DNA from: Acidimicrobiia bacterium | GTDB taxonomy: Bacteria > Actinomycetota > Acidimicrobiia > Spongiisociales > Spongiisociaceae | Direction of reading: 5' to 3' | Assembly: GCA_009838635.1 (NCBI GenBank) | Contig: VXRE01000161.1 | Span: 2,485 to 66,484 of the forward strand | Length of the DNA: 64,000 nucleotides | Part shown: one piece after another, positions 19,244 to 55,608 of the stretch | How the letters are laid out: each line of letters opens with the position of its first letter | How positions within the stretch are numbered: position 1 is the first letter of the stretch | Notes under the pieces: model-generated | Told to the model about the DNA's origin: nothing | What the model saw: the letters and a program-made list of their open reading frames with translations, nothing else | The model's database searches: none | Program-made: the position numbers and the translations under genes

Positions 19244-19316
19244 CGCCCGCGGCAGGATTCGAACCTGCGACCTACCGCTTAGGAGGCGGTTGCTCTATCC
19301 CCTGAGCTACGCGGGC
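19244..19316 (-). tRNA. tRNA-Arg (anticodon CCU)
   Basis: Reverse complement folds as GCCCGCG TA GCTC AGGGGATA GAGC A ACCGC CTCCTAA GCGGT AGGTC GCAGG TTCGAAT CCTGC CGCGGGC G. No encoded CCA. Confidence 0.9.
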
Positions 19317-27517: not shown

Positions 27518-28516
27518 TTGAGCGGAGGTGATGAGGTGACCACCAAAAGGGTCTTTTCGGGGATCCAGCCCAGCGGTGATATCCACATCGGCAATTACAT
27601 GGGGGCGCTCCGCAACTGGGTGGCCATGCAGGACGAGTACGCCACGGTCTACTGCGTGGTCGATCTCCATGCTCTCACCCTCCCTCAGGATCCCGCCGAA
27701 TTGGCGCGGGCCCGGGTACGGACCGCCAAGATCCTGCTGGCGGCGGGGATCGACCCGCGCCGCTCCATGGTGTACTACCAGAGCCAGGTGCCGCAGCACG
27801 CCGAGCTGTCCTGGATCATGGGAACCTTCGCCTCGATGGGCCAGTTGGGCCGGATGACCCAGTACAAGGAGAAGGAGGACAAGGGCGGGCAGAACCTGGG
27901 TCTGTTCTCCTATCCGGTGCTGATGGCGGCCGACATCCTGGTCCACCGCGTGCATGCCGTGCCGGTCGGTAACGACCAGACCCAGCATCTCGAGTTCACC
28001 CGTGATCTCGTTGACCGGTTCAACTCACGCTACGGGGACTTCTTCCCGGTGCCCGAGCAGATAACCCCGCCGGTGGGAGCACGGGTGATGTCCCTGAAGG
28101 ATCCCACCTCCAAGATGTCCAAGTCCGACCCGGATCCGGGCTCGCGGATAATCGTGACCGACGGCGCCGACACCATCGTGACCAAGGTTCGGCGGGCGGT
28201 TACGGACTCGGGCAACCTGATCGCCTACGACGTGGAGCGCAAGCCCGGGATCAGCAACCTACTTGACATCCTGTCCGCGTTCACGGGCCGTGACGTCCAC
28301 CAACTGGCGGAGGAGTACCGTTCCGTCGGCTACGGACGGTTCAAGCAAACCGTTGCCGAGGCGGTGATCTCTGGCCTGGCGCCGGTGCGCCGAGCCTATC
28401 TCGACCTGGACGACGCCGACGTGGAACGGATCATGTCAGAGGGCGCCGAAGCGGCCCGCACCAGGGCCGAGGAGACCATGACCGGCGTGCGCCACCTCAT
28501 CGGGATCAGTCGTTAG
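27518..28516 (+). CDS. trpS: Tryptophan--tRNA ligase
   Basis: FSGIQPSGDIHIGNYMGA (HIGH-type motif), KMSKSDP (KMSKS), about 330 aa. Confidence 0.9.
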   Translation: MSGGDEVTTKRVFSGIQPSGDIHIGNYMGALRNWVAMQDEYATVYCVVDLHALTLPQDPAELARARVRTAKILLAAGIDPRRSMVYYQSQVPQHAELSWIMGTFASMGQLGRMTQYKEKEDKGGQNLGLFSYPVLMAADILVHRVHAVPVGNDQTQHLEFTRDLVDRFNSRYGDFFPVPEQITPPVGARVMSLKDPTSKMSKSDPDPGSRIIVTDGADTIVTKVRRAVTDSGNLIAYDVERKPGISNLLDILSAFTGRDVHQLAEEYRSVGYGRFKQTVAEAVISGLAPVRRAYLDLDDADVERIMSEGAEAARTRAEETMTGVRHLIGISR

Positions 28517-28535
28517 TTCCTGGCTGACACCACAA

Positions 28536-29264
28536 CTACAAACCGGTTGGAGGGGTCGGGAAGAAGAACAGCACCACCAGCGTTGTCAGGTTGAAGCCGC
28601 TGTGGGCGAAGATCGTGGGACCGAGGGTGCCGGTCCGAGCCCTCAGCGTTCCCAGGAACAACCCGAACGCGAAGAGGACCAGGAGGGTTACAGCGCCGGC
28701 GGCGCTGTACAGCGACGGATCCACCAGGTGGATGGCGCTGAACAGGACAGAGCTGACGATCACGGCCGTGATCGGCTTGCGGTTGTTTCCCAGGAGCATC
28801 CGGAAGACCAGCCCGCGGTGGATCATCTCCTCCACGACCGGGCCCAGCACCGCCACGCCCACCACTACGGCCGCCATCGTGCTCGTTCCACGAGTCTCGG
28901 CAACCGCTTCCACGATCGCCTGGGGGATCGCATCCTCTACGCCCAGCAGGAAGCGGAGTCCGGCCGCGAGCCAGGCGAGCACTATCGACATGGCCGCACC
29001 CGCCAGTACCCAGCGGGCGTGGCGCGGCTCGACCTCGAACGAGAGGGCCTCGGCCAGGTTGGGGAACCCGCGAACCCTGCCTAGCAGGGCGAGCGCGCCG
29101 ATGTGGCCGAGGTTCTGGAGGGGAATCAGGACCCAGAAGTAGAAGTTGGGGTCGGCGGTGTCCGCGCCGAGTGCTCCGGCGATCAGTCCTGCGACCACCG
29201 CCCCAAGGACTCCTGCTCCGAGGACCGTAAGGGCGTCGTACCAACGCCAGCGAGCTTCCAGCAC
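28536..29264 (-). CDS. CPBP family intramembrane glutamic endopeptidase (CAAX protease/Abi)
   Basis: EEMIHRG, FSAIH and FAHSGFN motifs in a multi-TM protein. Confidence 0.8.
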   Translation of the reverse strand: MLEARWRWYDALTVLGAGVLGAVVAGLIAGALGADTADPNFYFWVLIPLQNLGHIGALALLGRVRGFPNLAEALSFEVEPRHARWVLAGAAMSIVLAWLAAGLRFLLGVEDAIPQAIVEAVAETRGTSTMAAVVVGVAVLGPVVEEMIHRGLVFRMLLGNNRKPITAVIVSSVLFSAIHLVDPSLYSAAGAVTLLVLFAFGLFLGTLRARTGTLGPTIFAHSGFNLTTLVVLFFFPTPPTGL

Positions 29265-32041: not shown

Positions 32042-32126
32042 CCGCCTACGGTGGTAGCCGTCGCCATGGTGACCCGACGGGGGTTGCTGCAGTTGGGTCG
32101 TGGCCGCCGCGTTCGGCTGTTACAGG

Positions 32127-32411
32127 CTAAGAGACGAAGGCCGGTGGCCTGGTGAACGGATAGGGCCTCGGAGGGTCTTGCGCCCATAGCGAGTCGAGAA
32201 TCCGGGCGTCGCCATCAGGCAGTTCATAGGAAGCGCGGATGACCTTGAGCGGCCAGGCACGCGCCGGTCTGAGCACTTCGATCCCGACCACTTCACCGGA
32301 TTCGTCCAGGTCGACCATTGTCCCCTCGTCGAACTGCCGCGTCCGAGCCACTGGCGAATCAGTGATCTCTATGTAGAGAGCGTCAGCGTCATAGTCGTAG
32401 GAGAAGATCAT
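32127..32411 (-). CDS. DUF2283 domain-containing protein
   Basis: MIFSYDYDADALYIEITDSPVARTRQFDEGTMVDLDESGEVVGIEVL fits the DUF2283 pattern. Confidence 0.7.
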   Translation of the reverse strand: MIFSYDYDADALYIEITDSPVARTRQFDEGTMVDLDESGEVVGIEVLRPARAWPLKVIRASYELPDGDARILDSLWAQDPPRPYPFTRPPAFVS

Positions 32412-32498
32412 CTGCTGAAACCTCCGTGCTCATCGGGCCACGCGGCTGTGATCACATGGTATCGGTTCTCAACGCTTGCGCATACCTGGAGGAAGTCC

Positions 32499-33803: not shown

Positions 33804-36053
33804 GTGACATGGGGTCCGGTTAACATGACCGGGATGGTCCAGTTGATCGAAACCGACACTGCTCCGAACGACCCATCAGACTCTCCGCTGTTCGCCGATC
33901 TCAACCCGACCCAGCGGGAGGCGGTGGCCGCCACCGAGGGTCCTGTGCTGGTGGTGGCCGGTGCCGGCTCGGGCAAGACCAGGGTGCTCACCTACCGGGT
34001 CGCCCACCTGATACGCGACCTCGGGGTGGCGCCGTGGGAGGTCCTGGCCATCACCTTCACCAACAAGGCGGCCGGCGAGATGAAGGAGCGGGTTAGGAGT
34101 CTGGTGGGTCCGAGGGCCAAGGGGATGTGGATTTCCACCTTCCACTCCGCGTGCGTGAGGATCCTCCGTAGGGAAGCGCCCCGGCTGGGTTACTCGTCAC
34201 GGTTCACGATCTACGACGCCCAGGACTCGCTCCGGGCCATCACCCGTGTGATCCGGGATCTGCGCCTGGACCCGAAGAACTTCCAGCCCCGGGCGATGCG
34301 TGCCAAGATCTCCAACGCCAAGAACGAGCTGGTGGACTACGAGAGCTTTTCCGAGCAGGGCGGGAACTTCCGTCACGAGATCGAGGCCGACATCTACCGG
34401 CTCTACCAGGAGCAGCTGTTGAAGAACTCGGCTATGGACTTCGACGATCTCCTCATGGTGGCCACGGAGGTGCTCGACGCCTTCCCCGACGTGCTCGAGT
34501 ACTACCGCGAGCGGTTCCGGTACCTGCATGTCGACGAGTTCCAGGACACCAACCGCGCCCAGTACGTGCTGGTCCGCCAGCTGGCCGGGGAGAGAGCCAA
34601 TGTCTGCGCGGTCGGCGACTCCGATCAGTCGATCTACGCGTTCCGCGGGGCCGATATCCGCAACATCCTCAATTTCGAGCGGGACTATCCCCAGGCTCGG
34701 GTGGTGGTGCTCGACCAGAACTATCGCTCCACGCAGACCATCCTGGAGGCCGCCAACGCGGTGATCTCCCACAACGGTCGCCGCCAGCCCAAGCGGCTGT
34801 GGAGCGACCTCGGCCAGGGTGCTCCCATCTCGCTCTACACCGCAGAGGACGAGGCCGATGAGGGTGGGTTCGTGGCCGAGGAGATCCGCAAGTTGTCGAG
34901 AGAGGGCTTCGACCTGTCGCGGATGGCGGTGTTCTACCGGGTCAACGCCCAGAGCCGGGCCGTGGAGGAGAGCTTTGCCCGCTTCGGTGTGTCCTACCGC
35001 GTGATCGGCACGGTTCGGTTCTACGAGCGGCGCGAGATCAAGGATGTGCTGGCCTATCTGCGGGTGCTGGTCAACCCGGCCGACGAAGTCTCGGTGCGCC
35101 GGATCATCAACCTGCCCCGGCGGGGCATCGGCGATGTGACGATCGGCTGGCTGGCCCGGTTCGCCGAGGCGGAGGAGACCACCTTCTTCGAGGCGGCCCG
35201 GCGTCACGCTGAGAACGACTCGCTGGCGAAGCGGGCCCACGGCGCCATCGACTCCTTTCTCGCCGACATGGAGAAGGTCGCCGGCCATGCCGCGTCCGGT
35301 CCGGCGGCAGCCGTCAGGGCGGCGCTGGAGGAGGTGGGCTACCTCGAGGCGGTCGAGGCTGAGGGCACCGTCGAGGCTCAGGGGAGGGCCGAGAACCTGC
35401 GCGAGCTCCTCTCCGGCGCGGAGGAGTTCGAACTGGCCGCCCTGCCGGATGGGGGGGAAGAACCGGACGGGATGCGCCTGGTGGAGCAGTTCCTGGAGTC
35501 GGTCAGCCTGGTGAGCGACACCGACGAGTTGGATGACAAGGGCGGCGCGGTGACCCTCATGACCCTGCACAACGCCAAGGGCCTCGAGTTCCCGGTGGTG
35601 TTCATCGTGGGCATGGAGGACGGGATCTTCCCCTACGCCCGGGCCCTTACCGACCACGACGAGCTCGAGGAGGAGCGCCGGCTCTGCTACGTGGGTCTCA
35701 CCCGGGCCCAGGAGCGCCTCTACCTATCAGCCTCCCGGTCCCGCCTGCTGTACGGGATGTCCACCTACAACCCGCCCTCCCGGTTCCTGCGAGAGATACC
35801 GGCCGGCCTGGTCAACAAGCTGGGCAGGCGCCTGAGGGACCACCGCCGGGAGTCGCTCGGCGGGCGCCGCCGGGCGCGGCTCGGTACCGAACTGGCAGTG
35901 GACGATCGGGTGCGGCATGACGTCTGGGGGATCGGCCGGGTGGTCAGCGTGGAGGGCACCGGCGGCGGCGCCCAGGTCGAGGTGGACTTCCCGGCCGAGG
36001 GCACCAAGCGGCTCCTCGTTCACTGGGCCCCGATGGAGAAGATCCAGGCGTAG
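33804..36053 (+). CDS. pcrA: ATP-dependent DNA helicase PcrA/UvrD
   Basis: LNPTQREAVAATEGPVLVVAGAGSGKT, DEFQDTN, VTLMTLHNAKGLEF, C-terminal Tudor-like VRHDVWGIGRVVSVEG. Confidence 0.9.
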   Translation: MTWGPVNMTGMVQLIETDTAPNDPSDSPLFADLNPTQREAVAATEGPVLVVAGAGSGKTRVLTYRVAHLIRDLGVAPWEVLAITFTNKAAGEMKERVRSLVGPRAKGMWISTFHSACVRILRREAPRLGYSSRFTIYDAQDSLRAITRVIRDLRLDPKNFQPRAMRAKISNAKNELVDYESFSEQGGNFRHEIEADIYRLYQEQLLKNSAMDFDDLLMVATEVLDAFPDVLEYYRERFRYLHVDEFQDTNRAQYVLVRQLAGERANVCAVGDSDQSIYAFRGADIRNILNFERDYPQARVVVLDQNYRSTQTILEAANAVISHNGRRQPKRLWSDLGQGAPISLYTAEDEADEGGFVAEEIRKLSREGFDLSRMAVFYRVNAQSRAVEESFARFGVSYRVIGTVRFYERREIKDVLAYLRVLVNPADEVSVRRIINLPRRGIGDVTIGWLARFAEAEETTFFEAARRHAENDSLAKRAHGAIDSFLADMEKVAGHAASGPAAAVRAALEEVGYLEAVEAEGTVEAQGRAENLRELLSGAEEFELAALPDGGEEPDGMRLVEQFLESVSLVSDTDELDDKGGAVTLMTLHNAKGLEFPVVFIVGMEDGIFPYARALTDHDELEEERRLCYVGLTRAQERLYLSASRSRLLYGMSTYNPPSRFLREIPAGLVNKLGRRLRDHRRESLGGRRRARLGTELAVDDRVRHDVWGIGRVVSVEGTGGGAQVEVDFPAEGTKRLLVHWAPMEKIQA

Positions 36054-36160
36054 TGGCCGGTGCCAGTGGCCGGTAGCCAGTTCGCGACCTAGAGGCAATC
36101 AAGTTCCTCGTGCCCAAAAACTTGTCGGGTTGTCCGTTCCTCCCGAGTTACAACATTCTC

Positions 36161-36200
36161 TGACCACTGACCACTGACCACTGACCACTGACCACTGACC
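36161..36200 (+). repeat. Heptamer tandem array (TGACCAC)x5.7, equivalent to (CACTGAC)n
   Basis: Perfect period-7 repeat read directly from the sequence, in the pcrA-tal intergenic region. Confidence 0.95.
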
Positions 36201-38991: not shown

Positions 38992-39872
38992 GTATCTGGC
39001 TGGGCGAGCGCAGCCGGGTGGTCTACCAGGGGCTGACCGGCCGCGCCGGCCGCTTCCATGCCCTCCGGAACCGCGCCTACGGCACCCGGGTGGTGGCCGG
39101 CACGAACCCGTCCAAGGCCGGGGCATCGGTGGAGGGCATCCCGGTGTTCGCCACGGTCGGCGCCGCCGTCGAGGCCACGGGCGCCGACGTCTCCTGCGTG
39201 TTCGTTCCCGCCCCGTATGTAAGGGGCGCCGTGGTGGAGGCCGCCGAGGGAGGGGTGACCCTCGTGGTGGTGATAACCGAGGGTGTGCCCGCCAAGGACG
39301 AGGCCTGGCTCTACGGCAAGCTCCGACGCGACCACCCCGAGGTCCGGATGATCGGTCCCAACTGCCCCGGCCTGATCAGCCCCGGCAAGGCCAACGTCGG
39401 AATCACCGCCGGCGACATCGCCCTGCCCGGCGGCCCGGTGGGGCTGGTCAGCCGCTCCGGCACCCTGACCTACCAGGCCCTCTACGAACTGAAACAGGCC
39501 GGGATCGGGGTTACCACCTGCGTGGGGATCGGCGGTGATCCGGTACCCGGAACCTCCTTCACCGACTGCCTGGCCGCGTTCGAGGACGATCCCGAGACCG
39601 GGGCGGTGATGATGATCGGGGAGATCGGCGGCTCGGCGGAGGAGGAGGCGGCCGCCTTCATCGCCGAGCACATGGCCAAGCCGGTGGTTGCCTACATTGC
39701 CGGGATCACTGCTCCTCCCGGCAAGAAGATGGGCCATGCCGGCGCCATCGTCTCGGGCGGGAAGGGGACCGCCGCCGCCAAGATCGAGACCCTGAGCGGA
39801 GCCGGTGTGCGGGTGGGGGAGAGCCCTTCGGAGGCCGGTCGCCTCATGGTGGAAGTGGTCGCCGGTCTCTAG
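38988..39872 (+). CDS. sucD: Succinate--CoA ligase subunit alpha
   Basis: [41 protein letters not shown] overlap with sucC. Confidence 0.9.
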
Positions 39873-40137
39873 CCCTGATTATTCATGTCCCCAGCACACC
39901 GACCCGGATCAGCCCACTTCAACCACACCTTTTCTACAGAGGCTACATTTCACCTGCTAGGTGATACCACATCCGGCCGGACGATCGGGCTTCCAGGATG
40001 GCTATAAACCCAGGTCAGAAGACACGGAACTCCCATTCCCGTGCCCGTACAGACCCCCATCCATGAATGATTGGGGCTAATGGTCCGGACGACGGCTTGC
40101 TGAGGCCCATCCCGCAATCACCCTTCCGACCCTGCGG

Positions 40138-46367: not shown

Positions 46368-46643
46368 ATGAACAAACGCGATCTGGCAGATGTGGTTGCC
46401 TACGAGACCGGAACGTCCCGGAGCCGGGCTATGGCGAGCGTCAACGTGGTGTTCGAGACGATCGCCGGGGCGCTCCGGGAGGGAGCGGACGTCCGGATCA
46501 CGGGGTTCGGCACCTTCGCGGTGCGACAGCGCAAGGCTCGGACCGGTCGCAATCCTCGGACGGGTGAGGCAGTCGAGATCCCGGCCACCAGATCCCCCGC
46601 CTTCAAGCCTTCGAAAGCCCTCAAGGACCGAGTAAATAGCTAG
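46368..46643 (+). CDS. hup: HU family DNA-binding protein
   Basis: MNKRDLADVVA..., GFGTFAVRQRKARTGRNPRTGEAVEIPATRSPAFKPSKALKD. Confidence 0.9.
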   Translation: MNKRDLADVVAYETGTSRSRAMASVNVVFETIAGALREGADVRITGFGTFAVRQRKARTGRNPRTGEAVEIPATRSPAFKPSKALKDRVNS

Positions 46644-46713
46644 TGGTCAGTTGTCAGTGTAATCCAACATAAACTAGCAACTAGCAACTAGCAACTAGCA
46701 ACTAGCAACTAGT
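46641..46713 (-). repeat. Dispersed intergenic element, copy B: (TAGTTGC)x5 plus one degenerate unit, TGTTGGATTACACTGAC, (NNCTGAC)
   Basis: Read on the minus strand. It fills the whole hup/SCP2 convergent spacer. The first TAG is the SCP2 gene stop codon (46709-46711). Near-identical to copy C. Confidence 0.95.
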
Positions 46714-47098
46714 ACTCCACTTCGAGTCCGGAGACGGCATCCGCGAGGTGATCCAGCGCTCGCTGGTTCAGTAGCAGCTTGGCCACGTTGCCCGAGATGG
46801 CCAGCTTCCCGCCGAAGAAGGCGCTCTGGATCTTCAACGTCCCTTGGGATATGGCCGCCGCCGTGGCGTAGTCAGTCCTCACGGTGAGATCCGCCTGCCC
46901 CAGGGTTCCGATCGCCAGGGAGGCGTCATCGTCGGCCACGTCAAGGTAGTAACGGCCGGCAGCCCCATCGGGGACCTGGTCGATCTCGAACTGGACCGAG
47001 AACTCGATGTCCTCCACGGCGGCACCGAAGCCGGGATGGCCGCGCACGGCCTCCGTCACCCGCTCGGCCCACTCGGCGCTCAGGAACCTAGCCGCCAC
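46709..47098 (-). CDS. SCP2 sterol-binding domain-containing protein
   Basis: FLSAEWAERV..., ..TDYATAAAISQGTLKIQSAFFGGKLAISGNVAKLL.. is typical SCP2. Confidence 0.75.
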   Translation of the reverse strand: MAARFLSAEWAERVTEAVRGHPGFGAAVEDIEFSVQFEIDQVPDGAAGRYYLDVADDDASLAIGTLGQADLTVRTDYATAAAISQGTLKIQSAFFGGKLAISGNVAKLLLNQRALDHLADAVSGLEVEY

Positions 47099-51034: not shown

Positions 51035-52342
51035 ATGAGGATGACACCTTCCCCTATTGCCTCCCTTGCCCGCAACCGCGCGCTCTGGCTCCTGTGTGCC
51101 TTCGTGCTCGCCCTGGTCGCCTGTTCCGACGATCCCGAGGAAGTCCCGCCCGAGACCACGGCGCCGGATACGACGACGGCGGTAATCCTGGACACGACCA
51201 CGACCGCCGCGGCGCCACAGGTGGATACCACGGCGCCGACCACGACCACCACGGTCCCCGACGAGGAGTTTCCGGGGCCGACCGTTCTTGCCTATCTCGA
51301 GGAGATCCGGAACATCGCGGTAGCCACCGGCCAGGTGGCGCTCGACATGCGAGCGGCCAACAACGACTGGGACAATCGATCGGTGACGGGCGTCAGGTAT
51401 CCCGATACGGAGGCGGCCCTCGTGGCCGTCAGGGACCGGACCCGCCAGCTGCGGGACGCTATCGGGTTGGTGGAGCCACCCAACGAGTTCGGCCTTCCCG
51501 TGGAGCATCAGACGGCTTGGGAGGCCTTGGGCGAGATGGCGGATGCCGCGGTGGAGGCGCTGGCCGGGCTGAGGTCGCCCGATACCGGGGAGCGGCGCCG
51601 GGCCGCGCTCTCCGACTTCATAGTCGCATTCGAGCGCTTCAACGGTGCAGTGAGCCGCATTGTCGACATCATCGACGTGGGCGGAGCCATCGACCTTCCG
51701 ACCATCACGGTGGCGACCACGGTGGCTACCACCACGACCACGACCGCCGCGACGACTGCCACGACTTCCGCAGCTCCCACCACCACGGGCGCCACGACGA
51801 CCACCGTCGCGGCCACCACCACGACCACCTTGTCGGCGGTTGTCGAGCACAGCATCGTGGACAGCGGCGGAGATTCCTCAGACCCGGTCCAGCTCTGGAT
51901 GACCGTCTCCGTCGAGGTCGGCACGACCAAGAAACAGCTGGCGGAGCTGGGAGCCCGGCTGGCTACGGAGTACAGGCTTTCGCGCGATTACCAAGCCCTG
52001 ATTATCCACTTCGTTCGCTTCCCCGAGGGCATTGCGACGCTCGGGAGATGGACCGACGCACCCCACGGCGACTGGGAAAGGGCCGGCGAGGCGACCAAGG
52101 GCGACTACTCCACCCACCAGATCGTCGACGAGACCATCGAGAAGGACTGGTCGCTGCTCCCGACGGACGAGCAGATGGACGTATTCCGCAAGTACAACGA
52201 CTACCGGACGGCGTACCAGATCGAGAGCGGCGTGTCTCCGCCCGACTCGGAGCTGATCCCGCTGGCCGCCGTTGCGCTCGGTCTCGAAGAGGCCGCCATC
52301 GAGGAGGCCATCGACGCGTGGAGCGCGTGGGTGGGCTACTAG
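51035..52342 (+). CDS. Putative lipoprotein with Thr-rich low-complexity linkers
   Basis: Signal peptide with lipobox LALVAC, two poly-Thr/Ala tracts, structured C-terminal domain. No family recognised. Confidence 0.65.
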   Translation: MRMTPSPIASLARNRALWLLCAFVLALVACSDDPEEVPPETTAPDTTTAVILDTTTTAAAPQVDTTAPTTTTTVPDEEFPGPTVLAYLEEIRNIAVATGQVALDMRAANNDWDNRSVTGVRYPDTEAALVAVRDRTRQLRDAIGLVEPPNEFGLPVEHQTAWEALGEMADAAVEALAGLRSPDTGERRRAALSDFIVAFERFNGAVSRIVDIIDVGGAIDLPTITVATTVATTTTTTAATTATTSAAPTTTGATTTTVAATTTTTLSAVVEHSIVDSGGDSSDPVQLWMTVSVEVGTTKKQLAELGARLATEYRLSRDYQALIIHFVRFPEGIATLGRWTDAPHGDWERAGEATKGDYSTHQIVDETIEKDWSLLPTDEQMDVFRKYNDYRTAYQIESGVSPPDSELIPLAAVALGLEEAAIEEAIDAWSAWVGY

Positions 52343-52435: not shown

Positions 52436-52657
52436 ATGATTCCCAAGATCCAAGGTGGCGAGATCATCGTTATTCTCGTGGTAATCCTGCTCCTGTTCGG
52501 CGCCAGGAAGCTTCCGGAACTGGCGCGTTCGCTCGGCAGCTCGGCTCGCGAGTTCCGTAAGGGAATCGAAGAGGGCCGCACCGAGGAGCAGGACGAGGCA
52601 GCACCCACCACGACGATCTCCGACTCCAGCACCACCACTTCCGGCACCGAGACTTAG
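52436..52657 (+). CDS. tatA: Twin-arginine translocase TatA/TatE family subunit
   Basis: GGEIIVILVVILLLFGARKLPELARSLGSSAREFRKG. Confidence 0.9.
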   Translation: MIPKIQGGEIIVILVVILLLFGARKLPELARSLGSSAREFRKGIEEGRTEEQDEAAPTTTISDSSTTTSGTET

Positions 52658-52720
52658 TTGCTAGTTGCTAGTTGCTAGTTGCTAGTTGCTGTTGGATTCC
52701 ACTGACTAGCAGTCGCTGAC
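52655..52720 (+). repeat. Dispersed intergenic element, copy C: (TAGTTGC)x5, TGTTGGATTCCACTGAC, TAGCAGT, CGCTGAC
   Basis: The first TAG (52655-52657) is the tatA stop codon. About 60 nt are nearly identical to the reverse complement of copy B. Confidence 0.95.
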
Positions 52721-52803
52721 GCCCCCAGAGGGCCGTTGGCCGCTTTCCGGTGGCCAGACCGTCAGCGGGGCCAAGCAGGTTTACCGCAGCCCGTTGAGCC
52801 TGA

Positions 52804-53259
52804 TCAGTTCGAAAGGGCGGTCAGGTAGTCCTCGAACTGGCGGGCGACCAGGATCTCCTCCGATCGGATCACGTCGGTCACCCTCCCGTGAGCGTTCAGC
52901 ACGAAGGTGGAGCGCATGGCAGCGCCCAAGGAGTCGTTGAAGACACCGTAGGCCTTGGAAGTCTCCCCGTGTGGCCAGTAGTCGCTCAGCACCGGGTACT
53001 CGATCCCTTCCTGCTTGGCCCACGCGTCGTTGGCGAACCGGGTGTCGCAGGTGATGGCGACCACATTGGATCCGAGTTCTTCCAGCTGTCCGAGGCTCTC
53101 CTGCAGCTCGCAGAGCTCACCCGTGCACACCGAGGTGAACGGGAACGGGATGAATACCAGCAGCGTCTTGTTGCCGCGCAGGGACTCCAGGGTGACCTGC
53201 TCGTTGTTGGTGTCCGGCAGGGAGAACGCCGGTGCGGGCTGTCCTATCTCGATGGTCAT
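52804..53259 (-). CDS. Peroxiredoxin (AhpE/Bcp-like, thioredoxin fold)
   Basis: IGQPAPAFSLPD..., FIPFPFTSVCTGELC. ATG at 53259 with a GAGGAG RBS; the track's longer N-terminus was rejected. Confidence 0.85.
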   Translation of the reverse strand: MTIEIGQPAPAFSLPDTNNEQVTLESLRGNKTLLVFIPFPFTSVCTGELCELQESLGQLEELGSNVVAITCDTRFANDAWAKQEGIEYPVLSDYWPHGETSKAYGVFNDSLGAAMRSTFVLNAHGRVTDVIRSEEILVARQFEDYLTALSN

Positions 53260-53312
53260 GTCACTCCTCGTCGGGTTGAATCCGGGCAATACTATCGGCG
53301 GCTCACGAGCCC

Positions 53313-54407
53313 TCAGCCGGTGAAGGGGTCGTCCAGCAGGACCCTCGCCGCCCATCCGGTCACGTCGTCGAGTTCCCCTGGAGAGGGCAGGTTGTCACCG
53401 CCTTGCCAGATCCTCCGCACCGCTGCCGGGCCCCAGCGCGAACCCACCTCGGCACAGAACTCGGTGCCCCTGCCGTGGACCCCTGCTGACGAGGAGGTCG
53501 GGAGGGTTCCGGCGAACTCGGATCGATCTCCCCGGGTCGCCAGATGTTCGGCCATGGCGGATCGGATGTTCGTGAGGTCCGGGAGCAACCCGGCCGAGGC
53601 TTGTTCGACCAGGTAGGCGCCGTACCCCTCCACCATCGTCATGGCGGTATGAGCTTCCTCCAGCAGCTTCTCGTTCATCCCCCCTCCGAACAGGGCGCTC
53701 ATCCCGCCCGGTTGGCCGAAGGCCTCCTCCAGACGGGCCGGGTCGGTGAGCGCCTCCTGCCAGATACCGAGCGCGCCGGCGTCGAGCTCCATCGAGCTCA
53801 CCACCGATCCGAACAGATCGATCAGGTGGGGCCGCACCCACGGTTGGCCGAGTAGGGCCTCGTGGACCGACTCGTGGAATGCCACCCACAACCTGACCTG
53901 GCGCGGATCGAGTGCGTATTCCGAGGCGAAGCCTTCGATGTTCGGGATATGGAAAGTGAAACCGACCGGCTCGGCTGCCGGCAGCCCGGTGTCGAACGAG
54001 CCGAGCGCCTGCGTGCTGAGCATTCCTGCCAAGGCACCCGCGTTCATACCCAGCAGCGCCGGGCCGAGGGGCTTCATCAGCCCGCCGAGCGGGCCGGATC
54101 CCATCCCGTCCAGGCGGTCCGCCATGGGATCGACCAGGTAGCGGAAGGAGCGGAGGTGAAGCCGGGCCCACTCCTTCCGACCGACCAGGACGGGCTCGAG
54201 GGTCGGATCGGTGGCCAGGCCGGTGGATGCGGGCACCTTCAACTGGACCAAGCGGGCCAGCTCCAGGTATTCGTCTGCGATCCAGGGATCGATGGGCTCG
54301 GGGTCGCCCGAGACATGGCCGGCGAGTTGCTCTGCCAGCGCCCAGTTGACGGGGCCCGGCCGGCTGAGCAGCTTCATGAGCTCGTCGAGGAGGTTGCGAT
54401 CCGTCAT
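53313..54407 (-). CDS. Zinc-dependent metalloprotease (DUF2342 family)
   Basis: HExxH as VAFHESVHEAL. N-terminal NWALAEQLA.. is typical of actinobacterial DUF2342. ATG at 54407. Confidence 0.7.
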   Translation of the reverse strand: MTDRNLLDELMKLLSRPGPVNWALAEQLAGHVSGDPEPIDPWIADEYLELARLVQLKVPASTGLATDPTLEPVLVGRKEWARLHLRSFRYLVDPMADRLDGMGSGPLGGLMKPLGPALLGMNAGALAGMLSTQALGSFDTGLPAAEPVGFTFHIPNIEGFASEYALDPRQVRLWVAFHESVHEALLGQPWVRPHLIDLFGSVVSSMELDAGALGIWQEALTDPARLEEAFGQPGGMSALFGGGMNEKLLEEAHTAMTMVEGYGAYLVEQASAGLLPDLTNIRSAMAEHLATRGDRSEFAGTLPTSSSAGVHGRGTEFCAEVGSRWGPAAVRRIWQGGDNLPSPGELDDVTGWAARVLLDDPFTG

Positions 54408-54523: not shown

Positions 54524-54970
54524 ATGGAATCTCCGCATCCGCGGGAGCGGGTTCGACGTCGCGTGAGGGTCTCCGCCCGACCCATCGATCCGCGTGCCCT
54601 GGTCGGCGAGGTGAGCGGCCCGCAGAGCGGGGCCATCGCTCTCTTCCTGGGCACCGTGCGGGATCATTCCCCCGGCAGGCAGGGGATCACCCACCTGGAA
54701 TACGAGGCCTACGAGGCACATGTCGTCGGCCGGATCGAGGAGATCGTGGAAGAGGCCACGGCTCGCTGGCCCATCAACGCGGTGGTGGTCGAGCACCGGG
54801 TCGGTCGAGTTGAGTTGGCCGAGGCATCGGTGGCGGTCGCCGTAGCCTGTGCGCACCGCGCCGAGGCGTTCGAAGCCGCCCGCTACCTGATCGACGAGCT
54901 CAAGTCCCGCGCCCCCATCTGGAAGAAGGAGGTCTGGCCAGGGGGAGAGGCCTGGTCGGCCGGGTCATAG
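54524..54970 (+). CDS. moaE: Molybdopterin synthase catalytic subunit
   Basis: GAIALFLGTVRDHS.., LEYEAYEAH.., AFEAARYLIDELKSRAPIWKKE. ATG at 54524 is preferred. Confidence 0.85.
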   Translation: MESPHPRERVRRRVRVSARPIDPRALVGEVSGPQSGAIALFLGTVRDHSPGRQGITHLEYEAYEAHVVGRIEEIVEEATARWPINAVVVEHRVGRVELAEASVAVAVACAHRAEAFEAARYLIDELKSRAPIWKKEVWPGGEAWSAGS

Positions 54971-54979
54971 CGCATGTTA

Positions 54980-55039
54980 TAGTTGTTAAGTTCTAGTTAC
55001 TATTAACTAGCAACCAGAAACTAGCGACTAGAAACTAAT
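54980..55039 (-). repeat. Degenerate heptamer array (TAGTTNC-like, about 8 units) overlapping the bioY 3' end
   Basis: Minus strand: TAGTTTC TAGTCGC TAGTTTC TGGTTGC TAGTTAA TAGTAAC TAGAACT TAACAAC. The bioY stop is the TAG of unit 3 (55021-55023). Confidence 0.85.
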
Positions 55040-55608
55040 CTCCAGGCGATGGGCGTGGCGCCGGCGGCCAGCAGGATCTTGATGGTGTCGCCGATGAGGA
55101 ACGGGGCCATCCCCTTCTCGACTCCCTCCGCGAGGCCCCACGAGAACGTGTACATGAGCCAGGCTATGCCCAGGGCGTAGATGATGAGGTTGCCGGTCAG
55201 GAAGGTGCCGACCGAGGTGGCCAGGCGGCGATCGTGGCGTTGTTCGGCGAGGTAACCCGTCACGTAGGCCGCCAGAATGAACCCCACCAGGTACCCGCCG
55301 GTAGCTCCGGTGGCCACTTCCCAGCCGCCTGCCCCGCCGGCGTAGAAGGGAAGCCCGATCGCCCCGAGCGCCACGTACAGCAACTGGCTGGCGGCCCCCT
55401 CGCGAGCTCCGAGAACCGCACCGGTCAGGAGCACCGCGAATGTCTGTCCCGTGATCGGAACGGGTGTGAAGCCCAGCTGGATCCGGATCTGGGCACAGGC
55501 CGCGGTCAGCAGGGCGAAGGCCACGACCCGGACGGCGGTGGCGACGCGTGCGTCCATTTTCCCGAGCGGGATGATCCGGGCGGAAAGCACCTCGGGCTGG
55601 TAGCTCAT
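55021..55608 (-). CDS. bioY: Biotin transporter BioY
   Basis: ..LGFTPVPITGQTFAVLLTGAVLG.. and the overall 6-TM pattern. Confidence 0.85.
   Translation of the reverse strand: MSYQPEVLSARIIPLGKMDARVATAVRVVAFALLTAACAQIRIQLGFTPVPITGQTFAVLLTGAVLGAREGAASQLLYVALGAIGLPFYAGGAGGWEVATGATGGYLVGFILAAYVTGYLAEQRHDRRLATSVGTFLTGNLIIYALGIAWLMYTFSWGLAEGVEKGMAPFLIGDTIKILLAAGATPIAWRLVSSR

Follow-up and report, generated by a model that had tools for sequence, protein, structure and literature searches.

Why does a gene in a GC-rich genome end in the first three letters of a perfect tandem repeat whose every unit brings another stop codon? The question is raised by array A, a run of TAGTTGC units that starts with the stop codon of tatA in a 64,000-nucleotide stretch of an Acidimicrobiia bacterium (GenBank assembly GCA_009838635.1, contig VXRE01000161.1, positions 2,485 to 66,484), which is called the window below and always means the whole stretch. 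The window has a G+C content of 66% and encodes a WhiB protein, and the sequences closest to it are sponge metagenome sequences. Array A is part of a small modular family that populates the gene-end spacers of this sponge-associated, high-GC actinobacterium and in which a short linker joins a G/T-rich heptamer array to a C/A-rich one. We favor the reading, with a probability of roughly 0.7, that the block is a heptanucleotide simple sequence repeat (SSR) array of the kind described as long SSRs or STRR, namely, an intergenic filler driven by slippage and tolerated against stop codons. The TAGTTGC array is a further case of a known, poorly understood repeat class and is new in this lineage. Among the long simple repeats of bacteria, heptanucleotides form the commonest class.

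Array A and the other heptamer arrays of the window

An earlier reading of this DNA, made from the letters alone (the sequence-only reading), had described positions 52655-52720 as TAGTTGC five times, then T-GTTGGATTCCACTGAC-TAGCAGT-CGCTGAC, with the first TAG serving as the tatA stop codon. The letters are exactly so, and the first TAG of the array (52655-52657) ends an open reading frame (ORF) that Pfam supports as tatA (Table 1). Translation of array A yields a stop codon in three of three frames on each strand, as had been claimed; read in tatA sense, the strand is the G/U-rich one. Chance was said to be an improbable source of such a block, and this is borne out: the longest period-7 identity runs of the window are 34 and 29 bases long, and 100 first-order Markov simulations produced none longer than 14. 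Array A is far beyond chance as a tandem heptamer array. The tetranucleotide CTAG, which had been called avoided, is indeed under-represented, with 53 sites in the window where trinucleotide counts predict 88 and base composition predicts 202, and ~15 of the 53 fall inside heptamer arrays. Tandem Repeats Finder detects four arrays in the 64 kb with scores of 73 to 82 (73 for array A), with five to six perfect units at three sites, and every array of the window lies between ORFs and abuts stop codons.

The second perfect array, array B, lies in inverted orientation. The top inverted repeat of the entire window pairs 46653-46704 with 52655-52706 over 52 nt at 94% identity, and the inverted second copy, array plus GTTGGATTMCACTGAC, spans 46653-46712. 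The 16-mer GTTGGATTMCACTGAC has exact matches at two places in the window and no more. The first TAG of array B (46709-46711) is the stop codon of a minus-strand gene for an SCP2-domain protein (46709-47098), and the array is identical in the ENGE20-1 and Logan assemblies. This gene converges on an HU gene that also ends in TAG, and the module occupies the whole 65-nt gap between the two stops. The partner array survives at tatA as a few CTGAC-type heptamers; full (CTGACCA)n or (TGGTCAG)n arrays follow the same linker in other copies (L050 and loose contig ends). Of the two decayed arrays that face each other between moaE and bioY, the one at 55005-55040 ends bioY, which reads through two units and stops at the third TAG, and the one after the moaE stop has the opposite orientation. 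The second module type couples a 34-nt head to a (CTGACCA)x6 array at 36158-36200, whose mRNA-sense strand is C/A-rich and predicted to be unstructured.

Table 1. Coordinates of the heptamer arrays of the window, their linkers, and the adjoining genes
Feature	Position	Strand	Remark
tatA gene, 73 aa	52436..52657	+	Pfam TatA_B_E, E = 2e-18; same 73-aa product annotated in public assemblies
Array A, (TAGTTGC)x5 plus T	52655..52690	+	five mismatch-free units at 52655-52689
16-nt linker GTTGGATTCCACTGAC	52691..52706	+	common to the second copy; part of the 52-nt inverted repeat
CTGAC-type heptamers CACTGAC TAGCAGT CGCTGAC	52700..52720	+	what is left of the partner array (CTGACCA)n
Predicted branched stem-loop, closed by CGCTGACG...CGTCAGCG	52714..52767	+	non-repeat part of the spacer; without U-tract
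Convergent AhpC/TSA peroxiredoxin gene (ahpC)	52804..53355	-	stop reads TCA on the + strand, 52804-52806
Array B, (TAGTTGC)x5.9, reads (AACTAGC)x5.9 on +	46672..46712	-	second perfect array
Linker copy GTTGGATTACACTGAC	46653..46668	-	exact-match and inverted-repeat searches
HU gene TAG stop, then at once TGGTCAG TTGTCAG	46641..46657	+	partner array on the G/U-rich strand; HU gene 46368-46643
Two decayed facing arrays	54971..55040		between moaE (stop 54968-54970, +) and bioY (55021-55608, -)
Second module type, 34-nt head plus (CTGACCA)x6	36124..36200	+	between pcrA/uvrD-like and transaldolase genes

How could such arrays come to lie against stop codons? Because the unit brings TAG in every frame, an array may abut or replace the stop codon of a gene. 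The protein would not be extended, which would make the overlap a tolerated by-product, not a targeted design, and the multi-frame stops would amount to an incidental fail-safe. Growth and shrinkage of the arrays would proceed by slipped-strand mispairing, and recombination between arrays could copy or homogenize them between loci and would also carry the linker along.

Two other gene ends of the window hold short repeats. The TAG stop of the pcrA/uvrD-like gene opens a 13/14-nt tandem repeat at 36051-36085 (TGGCCGGTGCCAG TGGCCGGTAGCCAG). A 25-nt spacer (28514-28538, TAGTTCCTGGCTGACACCACAACTA) separates two convergent ORFs that both have a TAG stop; its ends, TAGTT and AACTA, are inverted copies, and it holds CTGAC. 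This spacer may be a minimal remnant of the module.

Allelic states of the gene-end spacers

The spacers were compared with those of relatives ~92 to 95% identical to the window; L001 and L002 denote two NCBI relatives, and L003 is an ENA assembly with the same contig as L001. In GCA_028821235.1 and GCA_028821265.1 the TatA protein is identical to that of the window, with ~87 to 98% identity over the neighborhood. TAGTTGC arrays are also found in L049, L093, and L050, which are labeled Candidatus Spongiisocius variivorans, Candidatus Spongiisociaceae, and Acidimicrobiia.

The variable spacer between tatA and ahpC (52659-52803, bounded by the ahpC stop) exists in at least four alleles, that of the window having five units. 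L001, L002, and L003 have three units at the tatA stop (TAGTTGT TAGTTGC TAGTTGC), not five, and an extra 53-nt module, a head plus CTGACC units, is inserted cleanly beside their ahpC stop; this module is ~80% identical to the one at 36124-36200. On one contig, from a relative ~92% identical, 52658 is joined directly to 52804, so that the two genes are one base apart (TAGT|TCA). An RNA-library contig of another relative has 181 unrelated bases, starting GGCCTAACCCCTGACCCTGACC, between the same two positions. TAG(T) is retained at the tatA stop in all alleles. The spacer between the SCP2 and HU genes contains, in one relative, a shorter array flipped into HU sense. The moaE-bioY spacer is found in three states: the decayed arrays of the window, two facing arrays of about five units each in L002, in which bioY stops at the first TAG, and a mere remnant in L001; the C-terminal residues of BioY differ to match. 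Each array change is confined between both flanking stop codons. The comparison of copy number between strains that had been proposed together with the sequence-only reading thus finds five versus three units, and arrays that are absent, replaced, flipped, or decayed at orthologous sites.

Since relatives have three units, no array, another spacer, or a flipped array, the arrays are hypervariable and not artefacts. An origin in assembly, vector, or chimera formation, which the sequence-only reading had itself named as the outcome that would undo it, is ruled out by independent assemblies: the same array is present at the same gene end in separate NCBI, ENA, and Logan assemblies and runs. At 36 to 41 nt the array is, moreover, shorter than one read, and related arrays are present on megabase contigs of long-read genomes (L093 and L027), although short-read contigs do often break inside arrays (L004 and L124).

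The family is also abundant. As read from four sponge metagenome runs, TAGTTGC array bins reach ~100 to 600 times the depth of their single-copy flanks, and the CTGACCA array reaches ~60 to 100 times the depth of its own flanks in sponge metagenomes. Dozens of contigs in sponge metagenomes carry arrays with differing flanking sequence. Together with the 52-nt inverted copy and the two occurrences of the linker, the depth of the TAGTTGC bins confirms that the array belongs to a dispersed family, as had been proposed.

Would a mobile element explain these observations? In this account the array, linker, and partner array form a small non-autonomous element, mobilized in trans by some enzyme, that inserts at or near TAG stops or between convergent genes. 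Much of the evidence is consistent with it: unrelated loci have the 16-nt linker and the 34-nt head in common, the breakpoints between presence and absence lie directly after TAGT and directly before the stop of the other gene, the extra 53-nt module of L001-L003 is clean, and copies run to dozens per metagenome. The TAG(T) kept in all alleles of the tatA stop, TAG at 22 of 45 stops in the window, and an excess of first-TAG use across phyla, described below, fit a preference for such sites as well. However, the ends of the module (TAGTTGC..., ...CTGAC) are not inverted copies, terminal inverted repeats were not seen, and the empty-site joint has neither target-site duplication nor microhomology. 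The combination of terminal inverted repeats and target-site duplication that marks a miniature inverted-repeat transposable element was therefore not found at the tatA-ahpC module and its empty-site joint. No transposase was seen in the 64-kb window; the module ends are not fixed, as array length, tail, and orientation vary; the flanks of TAGTTGC arrays in other phyla are unrelated among the matches listed; and gene conversion between arrays would be equally able to share the linker. We consider a mobile element possible but unlikely.

Spacers free of heptamers are also swapped wholesale between strains ~92 to 95% identical, so intergenic turnover in this lineage is a general process of which the arrays form one part. 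Contig mapping along a 20-kb stretch is noisy, with conserved genes drawing contigs of unrelated organisms, and only a few clean spacer replacements are readable. For heptanucleotide repeats, the tatA locus is a clean case in a new lineage, in which one spacer can be compared across natural strains in several allelic states, with its array present, shorter, absent, replaced, or flipped. The arrays demonstrably rewrite protein C termini, as in bioY, and supply stop codons. Their practical effects are modest: short-read assemblies are broken and gene-end annotation is misled in sponge-symbiont genomes.

Two long spacers of the window are recorded here as well. One, of 455 nt between convergent genes (32044-32498), has only 19 to 29 bases in related strains and contains a small DUF2283 ORF (32127-32411, minus strand; Pfam E = 2e-16). 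The other, 209 nt after a TAG stop (39871-40079), is a single base in related strains.

Strand orientation and predicted RNA structure

About 12 of the 14 array-abutting gene ends in this lineage read the G/U-rich strand. UAGUUGC follows the stops of tatA, SCP2, bioY, and moaE and of genes in L049, L050, and L093; UGGUCAG follows the HU stop and, in relatives, the ahpC stop; and G-rich units follow the pcrA-like gene. The two strands differ in predicted folding. (UAGUUGC)5 is predicted to form a hairpin via G.U pairs at -12.0 kcal/mol, compared to -4.7 kcal/mol for its complement, (GCAACUA)5. Likewise, (UGGUCAG)5 has a predicted fold of -8.4 kcal/mol (z = -3.9), and (CUGACCA)5 is predicted to be unstructured at 0 kcal/mol. 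In L002, with its facing arrays, the spacer is predicted to fold into a single stop-to-stop hairpin on each strand, at -32 and -38 kcal/mol (z-scores of -2.1 and -3.1). The strand rule, with a G/U-rich strand predicted to self-fold after stops and a C/A-rich strand predicted to be unstructured before starts, points to RNA structure as the constraint. If the arrays have a physiological effect, it would mainly be that of a length-variable 3' stem-loop protecting the mRNA 3' end or aiding termination.

The non-repeat part of the tatA spacer contributes a predicted branched stem-loop (Table 1), kept in both the minimum-energy and the centroid fold of the + strand RNA. Metatranscriptome contigs place the tatA region and a pure-array 37-mer in RNA libraries and are the source of the 181-base spacer allele described above. 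An Rfam 15 covariance-model scan of the window gave no match at the arrays; two tRNAs alone reach the gathering score (1659-1731 and 19244-19316).

Should the arrays then be regarded as functional parts of a 3'-end cassette? The module would be two-faced, with a G/U-rich array, a linker, and a C/A-rich array, and would spread among the spacers of sponge symbionts. Such a cassette would give each of two convergent genes a stop codon and a self-folding hairpin, with a length tunable by slippage, and its opposite strand would stay unstructured. A mobile terminator or insulator built on an SSR would be of a type that has yet to be described; we regard this reading as distinctly unlikely.

TAGTTGC arrays across phyla and known heptamer repeats

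Is the association with stop codons a property of the TAGTTGC unit in general? Scanning one genome per species for TAGTTGCTAGTTGCTAGTT gave at least 118 stretches; all counts from this survey hold among the matches listed, and its gene calls are ORF heuristics. These stretches contain at least 128 TAGTTGC arrays from more than 10 phyla, none of them inside an ORF. The hosts listed include Bacteroidota, Planctomycetota, Acidobacteriota, Cyanobacteria, Gamma-, Alpha-, and Betaproteobacteria, Firmicutes, Chloroflexota, Actinomycetota, candidate phyla, and one archaeal genome. Among 100 classifiable arrays, only 9 lie between divergent genes and 24 lie between convergent genes; between co-directional genes, the mRNA would read GCAACUA across 43 arrays and UAGUUGC across 24. 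Where a start codon and an array are no more than 30 nt apart, the start is in the C/A-rich sense in 46 cases and in the G/U-rich sense in 20 (p = 0.002), and the strand bias on the stop side is weaker (33 versus 21). In other phyla the array is found more often immediately before a start codon than at a stop codon. Perfect period-7 arrays number 192 in the listed stretches, compared to 17, 7, and 3 for periods 4, 6, and 8, and a control set of 713 kb contains only 2 of period 7. Many of the period-7 units in the listed stretches are one-letter variants of TAGTTGC. The flanks of the arrays in other phyla are unrelated, meaning that the linker is specific to the present lineage.

These counts bear on the hypothesis, put forward in the sequence-only reading, that the array is a selected translational insulator, kept to stop read-through or frameshifted ribosomes in every frame of a GC-rich genome. 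Its appeal lies in the six-frame TAG and in the rarity of off-frame stops in such a genome. The first TAG is the stop codon of tatA, of the SCP2 gene, of bioY in L002, and of a gene in L049; of the ORFs across phyla that end inside arrays, 10 stop at the first TAG, 4 at the second, and 1 at the third; and the bioY gene of the window is actually ended by a third TAG. The partner array (UGGUCAG)n after the HU and ahpC stops has, however, no stop codon in gene sense. The array is also missing at the same gene ends in close relatives, many of the heptamers that occur alongside it lack stops on one strand or on both, and start-proximal arrays outnumber stop-proximal ones in other phyla. A single extra in-frame stop would suffice, which leaves the five to six units and the period of 7 unexplained. 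Given the stop-free partner array, the loss in relatives, and the start-proximal arrays of other phyla, the insulator hypothesis is not favored and appears very unlikely.

The same source had stated that no element with this structure was known. This does not hold, since intergenic heptamers have been described repeatedly (STRR, long SSRs, TAACTGA, and GGGAATC/GGGGAYT; PMC4679880 and PMC4692102). STRR go back more than 30 years, to three heptamers described in Calothrix in 1990, as cited in PMC4692102. Heptanucleotide repeats were reported as the most abundant long SSR class in prokaryotes, with polymerase slippage proposed as the cause of long SSRs, by Mrazek et al. (2007), here as cited in PMC4679880. 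As far as the citing papers describe them, STRR and the long SSRs of Mrazek et al. resemble the present arrays in that heptamers dominate, several unit types occur per genome, the location is non-coding, and slippage has been proposed. The features of bacterial heptanucleotide long SSRs are found here throughout: three or more head-to-tail units in non-coding DNA near ORF boundaries, multiple arrays of like and related units (four in the 64 kb), dominance of period 7, polymorphism among relatives, and the strand rule of PMC4692102.

The closest parallels are GGGAATC of Xanthomonas and GGGGAYT of Nostoc (Rehm et al. 2015, PMC4692102). These repeats are intergenic, 0 to 50 bp from an ORF end, with the coding strand downstream of ORFs, including stop-codon overlaps, and the non-coding strand upstream; they form inverted pairs, and their length varies among close relatives. 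The TAGTTGC arrays are alike in their tandem 7-nt units, the almost exclusively intergenic position within ~50 bp of an ORF end, the strand rule, stop-codon overlaps, inverted pairs, and variation in sequence and length between close relatives, and also in that few lie in divergent spacers and no link to insertion sequence elements was found (PMC4692102). Unlike GGGAATC and GGGGAYT, TAGTTGC does not form a G-quadruplex, contains the avoided CTAG and a six-frame stop, is coupled by a conserved linker to a second heptamer array, and resides in a sponge-symbiont actinobacterium.

The TAACTGA repeats known from marine Beggiatoaceae, Cyanobacteria, and Bacteroidetes are for the most part placed directly upstream of start codons, often by a few nucleotides, and their RNA is predicted to be unstructured (MacGregor 2015, PMC4679880). 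Weak reporter data suggest an influence of start-proximal heptamer repeats on expression in Nostoc (bioRxiv 10.1101/2022.06.06.494920). Both TAACTGA and TAGTTGC contain stops and have an AACT core (TAACTGA versus AACTAGC on the C/A-rich strand), occur in two to six or more copies, are intergenic, and have a scattered phylogenetic distribution. The mRNA-sense RNA of TAACTGA is predicted to be unstructured, and many TAGTTGC arrays of other phyla, in their C/A-rich sense, likewise stand just before starts. In contrast, the arrays of the window lie at 3' ends, starting from stop codons, in the self-folding G/U-rich sense, and arrays A-C of the window have no association with start codons. A full-text search of the searchable literature library returned no relevant paper with tandem TAGTTGC, and no account from Acidimicrobiia or from sponge symbionts.

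The REP and BIME elements of enterobacteria work alike in that they, too, are short repeats dispersed over the 3' ends of genes, in many cases near stops and between convergent genes. Their stem-loops stabilize the upstream mRNA and can affect termination and translation. REPs are ~35-nt imperfect palindromes with a conserved head that are mobilized by RAYT transposases. The unit here is, by contrast, a 7-nt direct repeat, and repeat searches of the window found no palindromic unit; nor was a RAYT gene seen in the window.

A universally special role of the TAGTTGC unit was rejected, as a viral collection gave 12 matches versus 3 and 19 for two same-letter permutations. This result also bears on a reading of the block as a protein-binding array, which on RNA would be recognized by a ring-shaped or multimeric protein that binds UAG at 7-nt intervals and on DNA by a nucleoid or regulatory protein. 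HutP reads UAG-N4-UAG, and the 7-nt UAG spacing of the array fits HutP sites. Binding would also account for the regular spacing of a conserved triplet and for the orientation rule relative to genes, and the Nostoc and Beggiatoaceae literature on heptamers offers speculation and weak reporter data in its favor. On the other hand, permuted heptamers are equally common in the viral collection, many different heptamers occur in the same genomes, and copy number and unit sequence drift freely between strains. The location is a 3' spacer, not a regulatory leader, and no candidate protein was identified, with no search made for a HutP- or TRAP-type protein. A binding array is still less probable than an insulator.

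The reading of the block as a slippage-driven SSR array tolerated against stops is itself open to several objections. Slippage alone leaves the 16-nt linker and the 34-nt head common to unrelated loci unexplained, and a copying mechanism is needed. The excess of first-TAG use among ORFs ending inside arrays is significant (p = 0.009 versus equal use), and TAG is the stop in 22 of 45 heuristic ORF calls of the window (TGA in 21 and TAA in 2); these two observations suggest a more specific tie to TAG stops. A further proposal, that the left (TAG) end of an array is always nearer to a gene than the right, was rejected, as a paired test of perfect-array boundaries gave 47 versus 41, which is not significant. 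As for the proposed effect on the mRNA 3' end, the tatA spacer, folded in full, surpasses its shuffled versions by only a small margin (z = -2.0), and U-tracts are absent from all predicted hairpins. The GC-rich stem-loop plus U-tract of intrinsic (Rho-independent) terminators was accordingly not found at the arrays, and a promoter/terminator consensus scan returned nothing at any of them. Actinobacterial terminators often lack U-tracts, which leaves room for a role of the hairpins in termination. The RNA-library runs are unstranded assembled contigs of relatives ~95% identical, in which transcript 3' ends are not readable, and the cross-phylum comparison depends on heuristic gene calls.

The share of TAG among the stops of the window is unusually high for an actinobacterium of 66% G+C, and T follows seven of the TAG stops. 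Stops supplied by arrays may explain the unusually high TAG use in this genome.

A 16-mer linker scan of metagenomes was set aside: it gave 120 stretches, nearly all of them chance matches in unrelated coding DNA, with only L158/L191 and L199 looking related, and the 16-mer pattern is too short for that collection. In a Thermoplasmata archaeon genome (L102 and L100), a TAGTTGC array is followed by ...GATCATTACACTGA...AACTGACCACTGG, which resembles the actinobacterial linker and partner units; contamination, transfer, or coincidence may be the cause. Directly upstream of tatA in the window, a 435-aa ORF (51035-52342) without a Pfam match is of low complexity over long stretches rich in Thr, Ala, and Pro, and it includes tandem repeats of 12 to 24 nt (51706-51829).

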